Part shown: positions 3,987 through 46,554 of the stretch, one piece after another
How the letters are laid out: every line of letters starts with the position of its first letter
Numbering within the stretch: the stretch's first letter is position 1
NCBI RefSeq assembly: GCF_003018255.1
Contig: NZ_CP027440.1
DNA: 64,000 bases
From: Escherichia coli
Lineage (GTDB): Bacteria > Pseudomonadota > Gammaproteobacteria > Enterobacterales > Enterobacteriaceae
Strand: one strand, 5' to 3'
Program-made: the position numbers and the translations under genes
The notes under the pieces: model-generated
Database searches by the model: none
Seen by the model: the letters and a program-made list of their open reading frames with translations, nothing else
Told to the model about the DNA's origin: nothing

Positions 3987-5451
<1,465 letters not shown>

Positions 5452-12546: not shown

Positions 12547-12757
12547 TTAACGACCTCAATTCCACGGGATCTGGTGGCGTTTAAAGTGTGTGGGCATTTT
12601 ACGGGAAGGTTACATTACTGTAAACATGATTAAATTCCTGTTACTTGGATTTGGCTTACAGGTCACATATGTTGCAAAACATATCAGGTTGATTTTAAGA
12701 AGCTGTTGCAAAAGGGCGTTATAACAAAAGGGGAGTGCAGAAGGAGTCTGGGCGGGC

Positions 12758-12773
12758 AATTGGTATAACCAAT
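12758..12773. promoter_or_regulatory. PdhR-type operator (AATTGGTATAACCAAT; ATTGGT-N3-ACCAAT inverted repeat) in cyoA upstream region
   Basis: Inverted repeat read from sequence about 210-230 nt upstream of cyoA ATG; PdhR is a known repressor of the cyo operon. Confidence 0.6.
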
Positions 12774-13005
12774 GCGAAATAAAACAATTATTTAACAAAT
12801 AATTATCATTAAGGTGACAACTGGGTAGTGGGAAAATAAAGACTCATTAGCTGAATCGTGTAAGAAAAATAGAATTCATAAATGGCGTCAATAATTTCCA
12901 GACGCTAAGCCGCACAAAAGAACAAATATTAATAAGCGATGCTGATGTTTATTTAGCCGTAATAATTACGGCGAGTGATTACTACGGCTAAATAATATTT
13001 ACAGA

Positions 13006-37605: not shown

Positions 37606-37959
37606 ATGAAGTATGTTGATGGTTTTGTTGTTGCCGTTCCTGCCGATAAAAAGGATGCCTATCGGGAAATGGCCGCTAAGGCCGCGCCATTATTTAAAGA
37701 GTTCGGTGCGCTTCGTATTGTCGAATGCTGGGCCAGCGATGTACCGGATGGTAAAGTGACCGATTTTCGTATGGCGGTGAAAGCGGAAGAGAATGAAGAG
37801 GTTGTCTTTAGCTGGATTGAATACCCTTCAAAAGAGGTCCGCGACGCTGCTAATCAAAAGATGATGTCGGACCCACGGATGAAAGAGTTCGGCGAGTCCA
37901 TGCCGTTTGACGGCAAGCGAATGATCTATGGTGGATTCGAATCAATCATCGACGAGTAG
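37606..37959 (+). CDS. ybaA: DUF1428 family protein YbaA
   Basis: Track ORF 117 aa. Confidence 0.9.
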   Translation: MKYVDGFVVAVPADKKDAYREMAAKAAPLFKEFGALRIVECWASDVPDGKVTDFRMAVKAEENEEVVFSWIEYPSKEVRDAANQKMMSDPRMKEFGESMPFDGKRMIYGGFESIIDE

Positions 37960-38000
37960 GTAGCGTGACGGGCTGTGCGGCGTGCCGTCAGCCCTAAAAT

Positions 38001-39551
38001 TCACAAATGTTGCTCGGCCCAGCGTAAGAAATCCTCTTTCGGTAATGCCTTGCTGTAGAGCCAGCCCTGACCGTAGTGCACGCCATGCTGGCGTAACCAC
38101 TCTTCTTGTTTACTGGTTTCGATTCCCTCCGCTACCATTTTCAGTTTCAGTGTTTTTGCCATTTCGATGATATGCGGCGTGACATTTTTATATTCCAGCG
38201 CATCAACGAAAGATTTATCGATCTTCAGAATGTCGACATCCAGATCCTGTAAATAACTTAAACTTGAATACCCCGTACCAAAATCATCGAGATAAATTTC
38301 ATGGCCCGCCTCCCGGTAGCGAGAAATTATCGGGGCGCTGGTTTTCGGATCGGCAAACTCGCGTTCAGTGAGTTCAAGCGCGATCTGTCTGGGATTAACC
38401 TGATAGTGATTGATCATTTCACGCAGCAATTGCGGGATTTTTTCCGAGGTGAGCACGGTGGATTCAAGATTGATCGAAATATGCTGCTGCGGATGCTGAC
38501 GCAGCCAGTCGCCCATATCTTCGAAGACGCTTCTTATGATCAGTAGCGTCAACGGCTCAGAAAGGCCCGTTTGCTGTGCCAGCGGAATAAAACTATCTGG
38601 TGACAACCAACTACCGTCTGTCTGCGGCCAGCGCGCCAGTGCCTCAGCACCGACAATTTTGCCATTGGCTAAGGAGACAATCGGCTGATAGTGCACGCAA
38701 ATATCACGATTTTCGATAGCATCCTGCAGCCGATGATGCGGTGACTGGATACGGCGCAAAATACGCAGCACAAACATCGCTGCCAGCAGGCCAATCACCA
38801 ACCCGAGCGGTAACCAAATAAAGACTTGCCGATGCCAGCCTTTCTGCAACATTTTCGTTGAAGACCAGGTGATGATCGAAATATTCATTTCCGGGAAGGG
38901 CAGGATATCGTAAATGATTCCATTATTTTCGATATGCTCACCGGGTGTTTTTTGTAGTCTGGTAATAATTCCCTGAGCAATTTCATCGCTGCTGGTTATC
39001 ACAACGTTATGGGCATTGCCAATAATGGCGGCATCAATTTGCCATGAGCTATAGGGAATGACATCAATAAAGGAAGCGGGGTCGATCATGACGACATAAT
39101 GTGCCGTTCCCATGGCAACCATGTAACGGATAATGCCTAAATCGTTATGCGATGTTAACCAGACACGATAACCATCTTTCGAAATTTTACCTGGCTCGGG
39201 GAAGGTATCGGGCGGGCTTTCATGCTCCAGAGACGAACACTGGGGAACGTTGTTATCGATATAAACCACTTCCTGAATATAGCGATAACTGTAAGATACC
39301 CGACGCATTTCCATGAGATGGGCTTCGCTACAGGCAGCGCCTTGCCATCTTTCCAGCTCTTGCAGCGCATCTTTCCCTTGTGTCGCCACCTTATTGGCCC
39401 GAATAGCGACGCGGGAGGAATACGTATTCAGCTCTTCAATAAATGATGTTTCTACCTGCTGATGGGCCAGCCAGATGCTTAAGCCGACAGGCAGCAATAC
39501 TGAAAGAATCAGTACTCCCGAAATAAGGCCGACCAGATGTCGTGTTCTCAC
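38001..39551 (-). CDS. pdeB: c-di-GMP phosphodiesterase PdeB (membrane CSS-EAL type; formerly YlaB)
   Basis: Track ORF 38001..39557; EAL motif in VGAEALARW; N-terminal TM helix; GTG start at 39551 (516 aa) from recalled protein length. Confidence 0.88.
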   Translation of the reverse strand: MRTRHLVGLISGVLILSVLLPVGLSIWLAHQQVETSFIEELNTYSSRVAIRANKVATQGKDALQELERWQGAACSEAHLMEMRRVSYSYRYIQEVVYIDNNVPQCSSLEHESPPDTFPEPGKISKDGYRVWLTSHNDLGIIRYMVAMGTAHYVVMIDPASFIDVIPYSSWQIDAAIIGNAHNVVITSSDEIAQGIITRLQKTPGEHIENNGIIYDILPFPEMNISIITWSSTKMLQKGWHRQVFIWLPLGLVIGLLAAMFVLRILRRIQSPHHRLQDAIENRDICVHYQPIVSLANGKIVGAEALARWPQTDGSWLSPDSFIPLAQQTGLSEPLTLLIIRSVFEDMGDWLRQHPQQHISINLESTVLTSEKIPQLLREMINHYQVNPRQIALELTEREFADPKTSAPIISRYREAGHEIYLDDFGTGYSSLSYLQDLDVDILKIDKSFVDALEYKNVTPHIIEMAKTLKLKMVAEGIETSKQEEWLRQHGVHYGQGWLYSKALPKEDFLRWAEQHL

Positions 39552-39714
39552 CAGCATATCCTTATTAACACAGTGTAGGGAAAGTATATCTGATTGTGGA
39601 AAAAGGCTGGCAGGAGATAAGGAGGTAGAGCCGGGATTTCATGAAGGGATGGGTGGAAACGAACGTTGTCATTTGACCAGGCGCAGAGCTTTACGCCTGG
39701 TATGTAACCCTAAC

Positions 39715-40185
39715 TTAAGATGTTGATTCGGCGCGAGCGAGGGTAAAAATATCGTAAAAAGATAGTTCACCTTTACGGACGATCATTTTTTGCAGTTGTT
39801 CTTTATGAACATCCGCGACACGCGGAGAGTTCAGGATGGCTTCAACTAGCGCGGCAGGTACAAAGCGCGTGTTGTACCATTCGCCGTTATAGCAAACGCG
39901 GAAATCCAGCACGTCGATATCTTCATAGCGGTAGCGTGGGTAGACATCGAAAAAGAAGAAACCATTAAGCAGGATAAATAATACAACCAGTAGCCAGACA
40001 GAGCCTGAAAGCGTTTCGGACTGCAACATCACTGCCAGGGTGGCAAAAAAAGCAACGTACATACCGATAAACAACCCCGGATGTTTACGGATAAAACTGA
40101 TACTAAAGCGGGGTTTGTTGTCGCGTTTTTCGCGGGTATTTAGAGACTCAATTGTTTCGGTCAGCAGGCGTTGTATTTCGGTCAT
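39715..40185 (-). CDS. ylaC: inner membrane protein YlaC
   Basis: Track ORF 39715..40224 trimmed to [15 protein letters not shown] (156 aa). Confidence 0.88.
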
Positions 40186-40300
40186 CGTTTGCCTTCGTGG
40201 TATCTGCAACTTTCCAGGGAACACCCTATTTTAACGTGGGAATAGTAGAGGGAAAGTAACAGATTTACCACAATTTTGCATAACAGTTGCGAAAAACCGA

Positions 40301-40852
40301 TTACAATTTTTTAATTATTCTGGCTGGATTACCGCCCACGACAACGTTGTCCGGGACATCTTTTGTGACAACTGCACCTGAGGCTACCACGACGTTATCA
40401 CCAATGGTCACACCAGGGTTAATGACCGCACGTCCGCCAATCCAGACGTTATTACCGATGGTGACGGGTTTCCCCAGTTCAGCACCGCTATTACGTGCTA
40501 CAGGGTCGATGGGATGTGTTGCCGTGTAGATATGAACGCCTGGTGCCAACATACAGTTATCACCAATGCGAATAGGGCAGACATCAAGCATCACGCAATC
40601 GAAGTTGGCGAAAAAATTATTGCCGAGAAAAATGTTATAACCATAGTCACAGCGAAACGTTGGCTCAATATAAGCCTCTGTCACCTGACCGAATAAATCA
40701 GCAAGAATTTGCTGGCGTAATGTGTGCTCTTCCGCCAGGGAATGATTGTATCGGTGAATAAGCCGACGAGCGCGCAGGCGATCGCGAGATAACGCCTCAT
40801 CTGCCGAGTGATACAACTCACCAGCAATCATCTTTTCTTTTTCTGTGCTCAT
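40301..40852 (-). CDS. maa: maltose O-acetyltransferase
   Basis: Track ORF 183 aa; left-handed beta-helix hexapeptide repeats. Confidence 0.95.
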
Positions 40853-40946: not shown

Positions 40947-41024
40947 TAGGGTATGCCTTCATGGCGAAAGAATTATAAAACTCTTAATAAACAGCCGGTT
41001 ATAGCTCCGAAAGCGAGTTATTTA

Positions 41025-41243
41025 TTAGCGAATAAATTTCCATACTGAGGAAGGGATCTTGTCGTACAGTTTATTCATGGTCAATTCGGCGAGGCGGTGA
41101 TCTGCGGCTGAGTAAAATACCGCCAGTTCATTATCTGATAATTCGTATTTATTTTTCTCGATAACACGCTCCAGCGTGTCAATTGTCTGGCAACGACGTA
41201 AACGCATTAAATAATCGGTTTTTGTTAAAGGTTTTTCGGACAT
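41025..41243 (-). CDS. hha: haemolysin expression-modulating protein Hha
   Basis: Track ORF 41025..41489 trimmed to [22 protein letters not shown] (72 aa). Confidence 0.95.
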
Positions 41244-41268
41244 ACTTCTACCCATGGTTGTAATAATT

Positions 41269-41643
41269 CTAACAAGATAAACTCGCAGGATTCTCTTTCG
41301 TCGCATTGACAAAACAACGGAATAGTCGATTACCTGACTTCCGCCATTTCTGAAGATCCTGCATATTAATACCATAACTACTGAACAACATAAAGGTGTC
41401 ATCCAGATATTCGTCGATCTGCTCAATGAGCTTATTGTCTTCATTATACTTAATTTTGTAATTAAGTGCGAAGGTCGCAATATGCTCAATCAGTTCATTC
41501 AACTGGAGGTTGATCGCCGAGGTTGGGTCGTTAACCCAGCCATGATTGCTTTCTTCAAGGTTTGCAAGACAGTCATGATACAGGGTTTCACAGAGAAACT
41601 TAAGCTGCGCGATATCATGTCTTTTGGGTGAGTATTCATCCAT
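41269..41643 (-). CDS. tomB: Hha toxicity modulator TomB
   Basis: Track ORF 124 aa; 25 nt upstream of hha (tomB-hha operon). Confidence 0.93.
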
Positions 41644-42144
41644 AACGCGTCCCCTTCTTAGCGGTTGAACTAACGGACACCTTTCGGGATGGAAAAAACT
41701 TACTGACCTGGACTTGCCCTCTCGTTTGTTAGCTTAACTATAAGCCACTCTTTGCAGGTTTTCATCGCATTATTACGAAAAATTACAATTAGGAAGGAAG
41801 CGGGACAGGACTCACTTTTTCATACTAGCACTAACCCGCAGCAGGTAAAAGCAGTTTGCTCGAACTGTTCATAACATTTCAGGATTATCGCCAGATGAAA
41901 TTGGTAACACTAATACCAGGATTGCTCTGAATATGACGTAATAACCGAGGAATGAATAAAGAATTACCGTAAATAATTAAGAATAGCCTCTAAATGATTA
42001 TGGATTATTAAATCTATTAGCGCTACTTAATATAAATTAACTAACAATCAGTATTTTTTATGAATTTTATACGTGTTTAATACTGGTTTTCGTATGAGAT
42101 CCTGAGTTGGTGGTTCAATGACTCCTTAATGTTCGTCGGTTATG

Positions 42145-42170
42145 CATAAAAAAGGCCGCTTGCGCGGCCT
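42145..42170 (-). terminator. Rho-independent terminator after acrB
   Basis: AGGCCGC-ttgc-GCGGCCT stem; on the minus-strand transcript it is followed by a U5 run (A5 at 42148-42152 on plus). Confidence 0.8.
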
Positions 42171-42188
42171 TAGTGATTACACGTTGTA

Positions 42189-45341
<3,153 letters not shown>

Positions 45342-45360: not shown

Positions 45361-46554
45361 TTAAGACTTGGACTGTTCAGGCTGAGCACCGCTTGCGGCT
45401 TGCTGGTTATTATCAGCGGTAACTTCTTGTGCTTTTACCTGGACACCAGGACGCACTTTCTGCAGCCCACTTATTACTACGCGATCGCCTGCTTTCAGAC
45501 CTTCTGTCACCAGCCACTTATCGCCGATAGCCTGGCTTGCAACGATCGGACGGGTTTCCACTTTGTCATCCGCGCCAACCACCAGTACGGTGGCATCGCC
45601 ACGCGGCGTACGGGTTACGCCCTGTTGCGGGACTAAAATAGCGTTTGGATTAAGCCCTTCTTCCAGACGTGCACGTACGAACATACCCGGCAGCAGAGTG
45701 TGATCCGGGTTCGGGAAGATAGCGCGTAGGGTGATAGACCCGGTGGTCTGATCAACGGTAACGTCAGAGAATTCCAGCGTACCGTCCTGCGGGAACTTAA
45801 TGCCGTCACTGGTGATCAGCGACACTTTGGCTTTGCCGTTCTCTTGTTTCAGCGTGCCATTTGCCAGTTCCTGTTTCAGGCGCAGGAAGTCGTTGCTGGA
45901 CTGGGTCACATCAACGTAGATCGGATCAAGTTGCTGCACGGTTGCCAGCGCAGTCGCCTGACCGTTCTGTACCAATGCGCCTTCTGTCACGTTCGACTTA
46001 CCAATGCGACCGCTAATCGGAGAGGTAACTTTGGTGTAAGCCAGATTGATTCGCGCAGTTTCAACGGCAGCTTTCGCCGCAGTTACCGCAGCATTCGCCT
46101 GTTGCGCATCAGCCAGAGCCTGATCGTACTCTTGTTTACTGATGTACTGAGTACCGAGCAGTTTCTGATAACGATTCACCGTCAATTGCGCGATATTTGC
46201 TGCAGCCTGGGCTTTCGCCAGATCACCTTTCGCACTGTCGTATGCCGCCTGATAGGTCGCAGGATCAATCTGATAGAGAGAGACACCTGCTTCGATGTCG
46301 CTACCTTCTTTGAAATTACGCTTCAGGATAATCCCGCTAACTTGAGGACGAACTTCTGCGATCCGGTAGGCACTGGTGCGACCCGGAAGCTCGGTTGTGA
46401 TCTGCAGAGGTTCAGTTTTGACTGTTACTACGCCAACGGCGGGCATCTGCTGGCCACCTTGTTGGGCCTGTTTGTCGTCACATCCTGTTAGGGCTAAGCT
46501 GCCTGAGAGCATCAGAACGACCGCCAGAGGCGTAAACCCTCTGTTTTTGTTCAT
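45361..46554 (-). CDS. acrA: periplasmic adaptor (membrane fusion) protein
   Basis: Track ORF 45361..46590 trimmed to MNKNRGFTPLAVVLMLSGSLALTGC (397 aa, lipobox). Confidence 0.96.
   Translation of the reverse strand: MNKNRGFTPLAVVLMLSGSLALTGCDDKQAQQGGQQMPAVGVVTVKTEPLQITTELPGRTSAYRIAEVRPQVSGIILKRNFKEGSDIEAGVSLYQIDPATYQAAYDSAKGDLAKAQAAANIAQLTVNRYQKLLGTQYISKQEYDQALADAQQANAAVTAAKAAVETARINLAYTKVTSPISGRIGKSNVTEGALVQNGQATALATVQQLDPIYVDVTQSSNDFLRLKQELANGTLKQENGKAKVSLITSDGIKFPQDGTLEFSDVTVDQTTGSITLRAIFPNPDHTLLPGMFVRARLEEGLNPNAILVPQQGVTRTPRGDATVLVVGADDKVETRPIVASQAIGDKWLVTEGLKAGDRVVISGLQKVRPGVQVKAQEVTADNNQQAASGAQPEQSKS

Follow-up and report, generated by a model that had tools for sequence, protein, structure and literature searches.

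The tomB-hha operon of Escherichia coli is separated from acrB by a long, A+T-rich stretch of non-coding DNA, and the locus raises the question of whether such a composition betrays a foreign origin. A preliminary description had regarded the spacer, together with the two small genes downstream of it, as an anciently acquired, H-NS-silenced insert between maa and acrAB. The analysis of the whole stretch of 64,000 nucleotides that contains the locus (hereafter the window), combined with a comparison of the corresponding region across the Enterobacterales, leads to a different answer: the spacer is probably native DNA, inherited vertically, that serves as boundary and control region of the acrAB and tomB-hha operons, for which we propose control by CpxR and H-NS.

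Gene coordinates were transferred from an annotated E. coli genome with 99.6% identity to the window and are collected with the other features of the locus in Table 1. The spacer is indeed the longest among the 43 spacers of at least 30 bp in the window, followed by cyoA-ampG (459 bp), and it lies upstream of tomB-hha as originally noted; it is also directly downstream of acrB, all three genes being on the minus strand. Its counterpart in MG1655 is 480709-481253, window coordinates within the spacer being shifted by 439065. The interval first delimited, 41644-42144, corresponds to a real spacer, but its end falls just short of the acrB terminator. The A+T-richness that had been noticed by eye, with a peak at 41880-42120, is confirmed by calculation: the GC content of the spacer is 37.8%, compared to 44.9% in the pooled spacers and 51.8% in the window as a whole, and the GC minima of the 64 kb fall here at all five scales of the sliding window, 100 bp (41972-42071, 19%), 200 bp (41895-42094, 26.5%), 300 bp (41854-42153, 31%), 500 bp (41655-42154, 35.8%) and 1100 bp (40972-42071, 38.2%). 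As had also been suggested, hha and tomB are AT-richer than their surroundings, with the two lowest GC contents among the 58 genes of the window (mean 51.9%, sd 3.6). In both genes low GC extends to each of the three codon positions, with GC3 some 2 sd under the prediction based on amino acids; amino-acid composition accounts for approximately half of the GC deficit.

Table 1. Features of the maa-hha-tomB-acrB region, in window coordinates.
Feature	Position	Strand	Description or basis
acrB	42189-45338	minus	transferred annotation
tomB-acrB spacer	41644-42188		545 bp, from transferred gene ends
acrB intrinsic terminator	42148-42171	minus	stem-loop AAGGCCGCGCAAGCGGCCTT, then a T run; terminator scan
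Variable filler, ~70 bp	42075-42147	minus	Escherichia-only block in alignment, conservation near 0
Distal AT-rich tract, ~285 bp	41791-42074	minus	GC minima, TpA-rich
Conserved island (a)	42030-42052	minus	ACTGATTGT ... TTTATAT; alignment conservation
Conserved island (b)	42004-42010	minus	-10-like hexamer, TAATAAT in E. coli; alignment columns
RcsAB-box-like palindrome	41917-41930	minus	TCAGAGCAATCCTG, 9/14 to consensus TaAGaatatTCcta
Conserved island (d)	41867-41880	minus	consensus cTAAc...ATGAa....AAGG; alignment conservation
Near-invariant block	41768-41790	minus	TAATTGTAATTTTTCGTAATAAT, invariant across 29 genera
CpxR-type direct repeat GTAAT-N5-GTAAT	41772-41786	minus	GTAATTTTTCGTAAT, 2 mismatches to GTAAA-N5-GTAAA
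tomB-hha sigma-70 promoter, -35	41760-41765	minus	ATGAAA, 17-bp spacer to -10; promoter scan
tomB-hha sigma-70 promoter, -10	41737-41742	minus	TATAGT; promoter scan
Conserved 5' leader of tomB, ~87 nt	41644-41730	minus	cross-genus conservation
tomB (Hha toxicity modulator)	41269-41643	minus	124 aa, GC 40.5%, Pfam PF10757
hha (H-NS co-regulator)	41025-41243	minus	72 aa, GC 40.2%
maa	40301-40852	minus	transferred annotation

Low GC at the spacer and in both genes, extending to all codon positions, together with the H-NS binding on record, is what speaks for a foreign insert, and hha is moreover coded 'L/n' in the HTG column of a published table (table S2 of PMC4720273), where the capital L presumably denotes a Lawrence-Ochman composition flag. 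The comparative data argue against it. The order acrB-spacer-tomB-hha is kept in essentially all of the approximately 80 Enterobacteriaceae species fetched, with a spacer of 435-559 bp and 35-40% GC in each, which contradicts any insertion within the family, and among 5426 complete E. coli genomes 5423-5424 carry the spacer here, in single copy. In Yersinia, Erwinia, Apirhabdus and Providencia, the neighbours of tomB-hha are ffs/ybaZ-ybaY-tesB and maa is not found there, indicating that it is instead the block maa-ylaC-pdeB-ybaA that was inserted, as a later, lineage-specific addition. Signs of mobility were sought at the locus: no tRNA was found, flanking direct or inverted repeats occur at chance level only, and the annotation contains no mobility gene. 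On records labelled as plasmids, tomB occurs in 14 out of 72,556, several of them of megabase size and with matches close to the chromosomal tomB of the host itself; since no genuine plasmid copy was found among these records, a plasmid origin of tomB was rejected. Although the four-fold sites of tomB and hha are saturated between genera, both genes have remained within 37-46% GC in 65 species, so that their AT-richness is maintained now and is not a foreign relic. Composition here reflects present forces and not ancestry. The contribution of the amino-acid composition to the GC deficit and a promoter active without helper factors (see below) also argue against a foreign insert. Taken together, these observations make an insert between maa and acrAB kept silent by H-NS very unlikely; if tomB-hha was acquired at all, this may have predated the radiation of the Enterobacterales.

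The two ends of the spacer are well conserved. On the acrB side, the stem of the terminator (42171-42152) comprises 8 pairs, 6 of them G-C, and begins 17 nt past the acrB stop codon; the terminator is near-invariant across 29 genera and is retained after acrB in Yersinia and Erwinia. The adjoining filler of about 70 bp is confined to Escherichia sequences, most other genera being without it or differing. On the tomB side, the proximal 147 bp show 0.63-0.87 identity between genera, and outside the core genera alignment is possible only for the proximal 200 bp and for the terminator. The hexamers of the sigma-70 promoter match the consensus at 9 of 12 positions and are both conserved across genera, the predicted start of transcription lying near 41730 (about 480795 in MG1655). 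Identical hexamers are listed for tomB-hha among constitutive RpoD promoters, RNA polymerase holoenzyme recognising the spacer promoter without helper factors (Shimada 2014, PMC3946193), and of three Salmonella fragments tested, the proximal one, p922, is alone in driving GFP (PMC5133643). In the leader, an invariant CCATCCC (41686-41692) complements AAGGGGA of the Shine-Dalgarno region (41650-41656), which would be compatible with a possible anti-Shine-Dalgarno pairing; in the RNAalifold consensus CCAUCCC pairs with the Shine-Dalgarno and start region with 0 compensatory changes, and the single-sequence folding energy of the leader is ordinary (z = -0.66).

The CpxR-type repeat lies upstream of the -35 hexamer, centred some 49 bp before the predicted start, and both the box and the -10 hexamer are kept in Erwinia and Yersinia. 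The CpxR motif scan of the window gives 64 matches for 46 expected, so that the motif is by itself undistinctive. In Y. pseudotuberculosis a CpxR motif is located 162 bp upstream of ymoB, a 200-bp promoter fragment holding it is shifted by CpxR~P in EMSA, and reporter data show an increase of ymoB promoter activity upon CpxR activation with YmoA protein levels unchanged (PMC13353760); this motif occupies the position equivalent to that of the E. coli box. In E. coli, tomB and hha are RegulonDB CpxR targets and tomB belongs to the CpxR iModulon, while it is outside the direct CpxR ChIP targets of the same iModulon study (PMC7657598).

Between these ends, the distal AT-rich tract has a TpA density of 11.0 per 100 bp versus 4.2 window-wide and is likely a platform to which H-NS binds. 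Sequence evolution in it is close to neutral, without overall constraint: identity between E. coli and Salmonella (measured over 41791-42147) is 0.53-0.55 with 27% gaps, while the four-fold sites of acrB give 0.54 and shuffles 0.44. Its size and composition are nevertheless retained across genera (mostly about 300-360 bp, the shortest being 225 bp, at GC 0.33-0.38), and short islands in it are conserved. Island (a) has the consensus cTTATTGT-N6/7-TTTATtT in other genera. Some 20 of the 29 genera have TATAAT or a TAnnnT form at island (b), which could be a distal promoter or else a spurious one; no -35 matching it was seen by eye, and it is absent from the output of the consensus promoter scan. 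As a measure of intrinsic curvature, AA/TT phasing with a period of 10-11 bp reaches significance in the window (z = 3.8) and in a single Salmonella; other Escherichia do not show it, and the cross-species mean z is 0.76. No good match to the high-affinity H-NS 10-mer, which we take to be TCGATAAATT, was found in the distal tract. With phasing not kept across species, no good 10-mer match and no overall sequence constraint, any structural role of the tract is hypothetical.

Also conserved within the tract is a palindrome resembling the 14-bp RcsAB box, whose consensus is TaAGaatatTCcta (PMC4325325). The copy in the window, TCAGAGCAATCCTG, keeps all five capital positions of the consensus and is degenerate in Escherichia, whereas near-perfect forms are present in most other genera, for instance TAAGAATATTCCTG in Salmonella and CCAGGAATATTCCTGG in Yokenella. 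The best match has at most 2 mismatches in 50 of 76 spacers, mostly 305-335 bp upstream of the tomB ATG, compared to 6 matches of this quality in 841 kb of flanking DNA, that is a more than 250-fold enrichment in the spacers. Scanning the window for RcsAB boxes at up to 3 mismatches did not recover the element, and such a scan within the window alone is not statistically distinctive; the weight given to the RcsAB and CpxR elements derives therefore from their cross-species conservation only. A literature search found no paper tying Rcs to the regulation of tomB, ybaJ or hha.

Binding of H-NS to the locus is documented. The spacer between tomB and acrB is marked 'HNS' in genomic-SELEX tables (Shimada 2014, PMC3946193), and in vivo ChAP-seq places H-NS at hha, at maa and at the maa-hha spacer (Higashi 2016, PMC4720273, tables S2 and S3); tomB and the tomB-acrB spacer are not among the entries of the H-NS tables of the latter study. 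The part of the preliminary description that concerned H-NS is therefore retained as far as binding is concerned, but 'silenced' is too strong a word for an operon whose promoter is active unaided and whose Salmonella counterpart drives GFP.

An alternative that has to be considered for the distal tract, possible though rather unlikely in our estimate, is that it is functionless, a neutral scar of a rearrangement by which ykgM-ykgO, a znuA-like transporter and an ORF of 117 residues were lost from this site in the ancestor of the Enterobacteriaceae; the scar would have drifted to an AT-rich mutational equilibrium, and H-NS would bind it solely for its AT-richness. In Yersinia and Erwinia these genes fill the space equivalent to the acrB-tomB spacer and the ORF ends exactly at the CpxR box, and the distance from terminator to box in E. 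coli (about 357 bp) is close to the 354-bp length of this ORF. A scar would also agree with distal identity similar to that at four-fold sites and near the shuffle baseline, with alignability restricted beyond the core genera to the proximal part and the terminator, with the distal location of all 8 SNPs that distinguish the spacer from that of K-12, and with the tolerance of IS1 and transposon insertions in the distal part, a transposon insertion in the spacer being tolerated and even selected during long-term culture (PMC5010248). The 117-residue ORF has no Pfam or NCBIfam family, and its AlphaFold model (pLDDT 84) gives weak NTF2-like or cone-shaped alpha+beta matches (E >= 0.03, TM about 0.4). 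That the spacer is a decayed form of this ORF was rejected: tblastn gave E values of at least 0.6 on mixed strands, and the family profile scored six-frame translations of the 76 spacers no better than shuffled spacers. The absence of a trace of the ORF in both searches speaks against a scar. So does persistence: all genera examined retain a tract of about 225-360 bp at 33-38% GC although its sequence has turned over completely, which is unexpected given the bias toward deletion usually attributed to bacterial genomes. Conserved islands inside the tract, above all the RcsAB-like palindrome with its enrichment over the flanks, also argue against a scar, as does the occurrence of a long AT-rich region 5' of tomB next to another upstream neighbour: in Providencia, where this neighbour is mltD, the region measures 525 bp at 28-30% GC. 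Such regions are also found in Apirhabdus (691 bp), Mangrovibacter (846 bp) and Cronobacter (463 bp).

The opposite reading would be that the tract is selected not for its sequence but for its physical properties, namely length, AT and TpA content and the nucleation of H-NS/Hha filaments, and that it acts as an autoregulatory platform setting the cellular ratio of Hha to H-NS, with envelope-stress regulators as counter-silencers, CpxR acting at the promoter and the other input coming, in most Enterobacteriaceae, through an undescribed RcsAB-type operator some 320 bp 5' of tomB. We put this forward tentatively and regard it, in this full form, as unlikely; if it were true, selection of this kind would show in a tract that stays roughly the same size, at 33-38% GC, while its sequence turns over completely, and in a long AT-rich region 5' of tomB even next to a different upstream gene. 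That the spacer conceals an unannotated gene appears highly improbable, whether for a small RNA, for a small protein or, with a distal promoter near 42004-42010, for a long structured leader. The conservation of the -10-like TATAAT of island (b), the two mapped start sites of Yersinia ymoBA (PMC13353760) and two short ORFs (21 residues at 41700-41765 and 25 residues at 42115-42192) could be taken in its favour, but the -10-like hexamer has no conserved -35, the shorter ORF begins within the -35 hexamer of the proximal promoter and upstream of the predicted start site, the acrB terminator is the sole terminator on either strand, and conservation of the tract is too low for a coding sequence or a structured RNA. 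Moreover, Rfam yields no match at gathering score in the spacer, and at a permissive E-value a single chance-level one over the acrB terminator (uxuA RNA, E = 0.35, 22.8 bits versus 66.8 required), and no feature is annotated in the spacer in MG1655 RefSeq or in the PGAP-annotated E. coli genomes among those listed.

With the spacer understood as a native boundary and control region, its parts suggest the following mode of operation. The proximal promoter would be usable by RNA polymerase unaided, and envelope stress would raise its activity through CpxR~P bound at about -49. H-NS together with Hha would coat the AT-rich tract as well as tomB and hha themselves, likewise AT-rich, thereby damping the promoter, which would amount to a feedback on the production of a partner of H-NS itself. 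A second input of envelope stress may come, in most other Enterobacteriaceae, from an RcsAB-type operator in the tract.

This arrangement can be compared with known systems. It resembles H-NS-bound promoters with RcsAB boxes such as that of rcsA, where repression by H-NS is combined with RcsAB boxes (PMC11879457), in that H-NS binding is on record, that the sigma-70 promoter is preceded by a tract rich in AT and TpA, and that boxes for envelope-stress regulators lie in or beside this tract. It differs from them in that the lowering of tomB-hha expression by H-NS is one that we infer, that the Rcs-like box is degenerate in Escherichia, and that the product is a partner of H-NS, so that repression would form a putative feedback loop. 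The Yersinia ymoB-ymoA operon is orthologous and has its GTAAx-N5-GTAAx box and -10 hexamer equally distant from the start codon, but there the box overlaps the stop codon of the 117-residue ORF and ykgM-ykgO lie between acrB and this ORF, whereas the same space is non-coding AT-rich DNA in E. coli. With targets of xenogeneic silencing, which are AT-rich islands of horizontal origin under a coat of H-NS and Hha, the locus shares a GC content low relative to the genome and occupancy by H-NS; unlike them, it has order-wide synteny, no mobility signatures, an active promoter and a composition that is maintained with no decay toward the host value. Finally, tomB-hha has been described as a toxin-antitoxin pair and the proximal promoter of Salmonella binds TomB (PMC5133643), as in type II toxin-antitoxin promoters, but an operator of this kind would take up only some tens of bp close to the -10 hexamer and leaves 400 bp upstream unexplained.

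Hha tunes the silencing by H-NS of virulence genes and of horizontally acquired genes, and TomB-Hha affects biofilm formation and persistence, which gives the control of the tomB-hha operon some importance. The promoter, the CpxR input and the binding of H-NS are already on record, and in this sense the locus is largely ordinary. The present analysis adds that it is ancestral to the Enterobacterales and not an insert, that maa-ylaC-pdeB-ybaA is the later arrival, that the AT-richness is actively maintained, that an RcsAB-like palindrome is conserved within the tract in most genera, and that an uncharacterised gene for 117 residues occupies the same space in Yersiniaceae and Erwiniaceae. Current understanding of the locus is not overturned by these results; they mainly correct the tempting but wrong step from low GC content to foreign origin.

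The tomB-acrB spacer (41644-42188, 545 bp), which also forms the sequence downstream of acrB, is the longest of the 43 spacers in the window. Its GC content is 37.8%; that of all spacers taken together is 44.9%, and the window has 51.8%. Sliding windows of 100, 200, 300, 500 and 1100 bp over the whole window always place the GC minimum at this locus, with the lowest value, 19%, at 41972-42071; hha (40.2%) and tomB (40.5%) have the lowest GC among 58 genes. The preliminary description of a long AT-rich spacer beside two AT-richer genes is thus confirmed. TpA steps in the distal tract, the AT-rich part away from tomB, amount to 11.0 per 100 bp versus 4.2 window-wide; AA/TT helical phasing of the tract is strong in the window but not general across species. 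The cyoA-ampG spacer (12547-13005) is comparable, being second in length (459 bp) and in AT-richness (36.6% GC, 26% at 12777-12876). Gene coordinates were carried over from the best-matching annotated genome (99.6% identity over the tomB-acrB locus; 98.4% for K-12). Within the spacer, MG1655 coordinates equal window coordinates plus 439065; the MG1655 RefSeq record has no annotated feature in this interval, and all 8 SNPs separating the two sequences fall in the distal part.

Features of the tomB-acrB region and of the 117-aa ORF found in other families
Feature	Position	Strand	Basis
pdeB	38001-39551	-	transferred annotation
ylaC	39715-40185	-	transferred annotation
maa	40301-40852	-	transferred annotation
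hha	41025-41243	-	transferred annotation
tomB	41269-41643	-	transferred annotation
conserved tomB leader, ~87 nt	to ATG at 41643	-	
-10 TATAGT	41742-41737	-	promoter scan; 17 bp from -35
-35 ATGAAA	41765-41760	-	promoter scan
near-invariant block TAATTGTAATTTTTCGTAATAAT, with direct repeat GTAAT-N5-GTAAT	41790-41768	-	
AT-rich tract	42074-41791	-	
island cTAAc...ATGAa	41880-41867	-	alignment
island, palindrome	41930-41917	-	alignment
island, -10-like TATAAT (E. coli TAATAAT)	42010-42004	-	alignment
island cTTATTGT...TTTATtT	42052-42030	-	alignment
~70-bp block, Escherichia sequences only	42147-42075	-	conservation map and alignment
acrB intrinsic terminator	42171-42148	-	terminator scan
acrB	42189-45338	-	transferred annotation
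acrA	45361-46554	-	transferred annotation
117-aa ORF, Yersinia pseudotuberculosis	L089:6072-6425		
117-aa ORF, Erwinia	L085:6504-6857		

The elements of the spacer have largely been described before. The tomB-hha hexamers are exactly those in the list of constitutive RpoD promoters from genomic SELEX, and the same table tags the spacer as holding H-NS binding sites (PMC3946193). Among three candidate fragments 5' of Salmonella tomB, only the proximal one drove GFP (PMC5133643). In the leader, the complementarity of an invariant CCATCCC (41692-41686) to the Shine-Dalgarno region (41656-41650) suggests an anti-SD hairpin, and translational control by this candidate structure is possible; the pairing has zero covariation support and the leader folding energy is ordinary. 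A genomic-SELEX peak of PdhR and a weak box predicted for it (8/14) are also reported for the interval (PMC7660256), at window positions ~41705 and 41875 (MG1655 480770 and 480940); the box as printed there shows no obvious agreement with the sequence read at that position.

The direct repeat in the near-invariant block differs from the CpxR consensus GTAAA-N5-GTAAA by two mismatches. Matches that good occur 64 times in the window versus 46 expected, so that the match alone is not distinctive. The box is, in addition, invariant in 29 genera and can be recognised in Erwinia (AACTGTAATTTTTAGTAAG) as well as Yersinia (AATTGTAAGATTCCGTAAT). For Y. pseudotuberculosis, a study from 2026 located a CpxR motif 162 bp 5' of ymoB, the tomB orthologue, and reported that a 200-bp promoter fragment with this motif is shifted by CpxR~P and that CpxR activation increases promoter activity (PMC13353760). 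The position of that motif is the position of the E. coli box. RegulonDB lists tomB and hha among CpxR targets, and the CpxR iModulon includes tomB (PMC7657598).

When E. coli is compared with other genera, identity is 0.63-0.87 over the proximal 147 bp (box, promoter and leader) and 0.47-0.55, with 22-37% gaps, over the distal tract, a level close to that of four-fold sites and of the spacer between hha and maa (0.45-0.49), the shuffle baseline being slightly lower (0.44). The spacer profile aligns over its full length in Cronobacter, its distal part poorly; in Apirhabdus and Mangrovibacter it detects the terminator and the proximal 200 bp but nothing else, and in Erwinia and Yersinia even less. 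The main rival explanation, which concerns the distal tract alone, takes the tract for leftover DNA without function that has reached mutational equilibrium and that H-NS binds incidentally; we regard this as possible but rather unlikely. Four short islands stand out within the tract, among them a palindrome that reads TAAGAATATTCCTG/A in most genera and CCAGGAATATTCCTGG in Yokenella, the RcsAB box consensus being TaAGaatatTCcta (PMC4325325). The best RcsAB match has at most two mismatches in 50 of 76 spacers, counts that are not independent as the species are related, and lies 305-335 bp 5' of the tomB ATG in most spacers (237 bp in the shortest); flanking DNA holds 6 such matches in 841 kb. 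Conservation of the palindrome within otherwise unalignable DNA is informative despite this kinship. Near-perfect copies include those of comparison loci L013, L020, L038, L052 and L077; the Escherichia version is degenerate, having drifted to TCAGAGCAATCCTG with 9 of 14 matches, and retains all five strongly conserved positions. In the literature we found no paper tying Rcs to regulation of tomB, ybaJ or hha.

The spacer copy is not contiguous in ~15 of 5423 genomes. A deletion in E. coli Br_112_kylling (L002, NZ_CP182371.1; one complete genome) takes tomB, the entire spacer and the 3' end of acrB, leaving a shortened hha beside a truncated acrB pseudogene, and in E. coli TUM13773 (H40, NZ_CP128912.1) the spacer is interrupted by an IS1 transposase. 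During a 700-generation culture, selection also favoured a DARS1 transposon insertion in the spacer (PMC5010248).

A TomB profile scan of one genome per species gave 80 Enterobacteriaceae loci, essentially all with the order acrB-spacer-tomB-hha followed by maa-ylaC (maa missing in a few); the spacer measures 435-559 bp with 34.6-40.4% GC across all loci. The order is acrB-463 bp-tomB-hha-maa-ylaC in Cronobacter, acrB-846 bp-tomB-hha-ylaC in Mangrovibacter, acrB-691 bp-tomB-hha-ffs-ybaZ-ybaY-tesB in Apirhabdus, acrAB-ykgM-ykgO-(znuA-like transporter)-117-aa ORF-tomB/ymoB-hha/ymoA-ffs-ybaZ-ybaY-tesB-amtB-glnK-mdlBA in Yersinia and Erwinia, and mltD-525 bp (28-30% GC)-tomB-hha-ybaY-tesB-mdlBA-decR-queC in Providencia. 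These gene orders indicate that tomB-hha was tied to the ffs/ybaZ-ybaY-tesB block before the families diverged. The genes ybaA, pdeB, ylaC and maa (37606-40852; GC 45.6-48.6%, somewhat below average) lie between hha and ffs in core Enterobacteriaceae only, and ffs directly follows hha in Yersinia, Erwinia and Apirhabdus; it is maa-ylaC-pdeB-ybaA, not tomB-hha, that looks like the lineage-specific addition. The locus has neither tRNA nor flanking repeat, and a second genomic copy is absent. The proposal of an ancient insert between maa and acrAB is therefore not borne out: family-wide synteny contradicts it, whereas composition and H-NS binding are as that proposal predicted.

The genes ykgM and ykgO, a pair paralogous to those of ribosomal proteins L31 and L36, are absent from the E. 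coli window; the pair lies just after acrB in Erwinia (L085) and two of three Yersinia loci (L088-L089), farther off in the third (L087), and inverted after ylaC in Cronobacter (L090:7039-7443), a shifting position that suggests repeated local rearrangement around tomB-hha. The tomB gene is effectively absent from real plasmids. The tomB-carrying 'plasmid' records H44-H46, H51, H53-H54 and L093 include several of megabase size (0.8-5.4 Mb) and a 488-kb Providencia 'plasmid 2' that carries the core genes dnaQ, rnhA, gloB, mltD, tomB-hha and tesB; probably these are chromosomes under a wrong label or, for Providencia, a chromid.

In Yersiniaceae and Erwiniaceae (Yersinia, Serratia, Ewingella, Rouxiella, Erwinia, Pantoea), ymoB/tomB is directly preceded on its own strand by the unnamed conserved 117-aa ORF, whose end coincides exactly with the CpxR box: the ADEL-stop at its C-terminus is invariant and provides the TGTAA of the box. 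The ORF has no family match in Pfam or NCBIfam, and its AlphaFold model (pLDDT 84) gives weak NTF2-like matches only; in these families the tomB-hha unit could include it as a third member. The near-equality of the E. coli terminator-to-box distance (357 bp) and the ORF length (354 bp) suggested a decayed gene; since neither tblastn nor profile search found a trace, the idea that the spacer is a decayed copy is unsupported, although very old decay is conceivable.

In 65 species, GC is 38.7-46.1% for tomB and 36.5-45.2% for hha, and their GC3 is always 10-25 points under that of acrB in the same genome. About half of the deficit in the window comes from amino-acid composition, the remainder being AT-biased synonymous choice (GC3 0.44-0.46 observed versus 0.55-0.56 expected); measured against window usage, the codon adaptation of both genes falls in the lower tail without making either an outlier (z -0.9 and -1.3). 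Four-fold-site identity between E. coli and other genera is 0.54-0.60 for acrB and 0.27-0.48, that is saturated, for tomB and hha. As GC is still low everywhere at saturated sites and synonymous choice is AT-biased, the composition is upheld by present forces, perhaps selection in favour of AT-rich DNA, perhaps local mutational equilibrium, and is no relic of a foreign origin.

In vivo ChAP-seq in E. coli found hha, maa and the maa-hha spacer bound by H-NS (PMC4720273, tables S2 and S3); tomB and the tomB-acrB spacer are absent from these tables, and a good match to the 10-bp H-NS motif is lacking in the tract. Of the H-NS-silenced insert originally proposed, AT-richness and H-NS binding stand and the insert does not; the locus is probably not silent either, its promoter being recognised as of the constitutive RpoD type (PMC3946193). 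We consider it likely that the spacer is a native control region between acrAB and tomB-hha, combining promoter, CpxR and H-NS. Transcription of acrAB would be halted at the strong terminator, and tomB-hha would be transcribed from the proximal sigma-70 promoter, working unaided from a predicted start site and boosted by CpxR~P at about -49. Bound together with Hha to the upstream tract and to the genes, both AT-rich, H-NS would damp expression, closing a putative feedback loop on its own partner; a second envelope-stress input may come from an Rcs-type operator in other genera.
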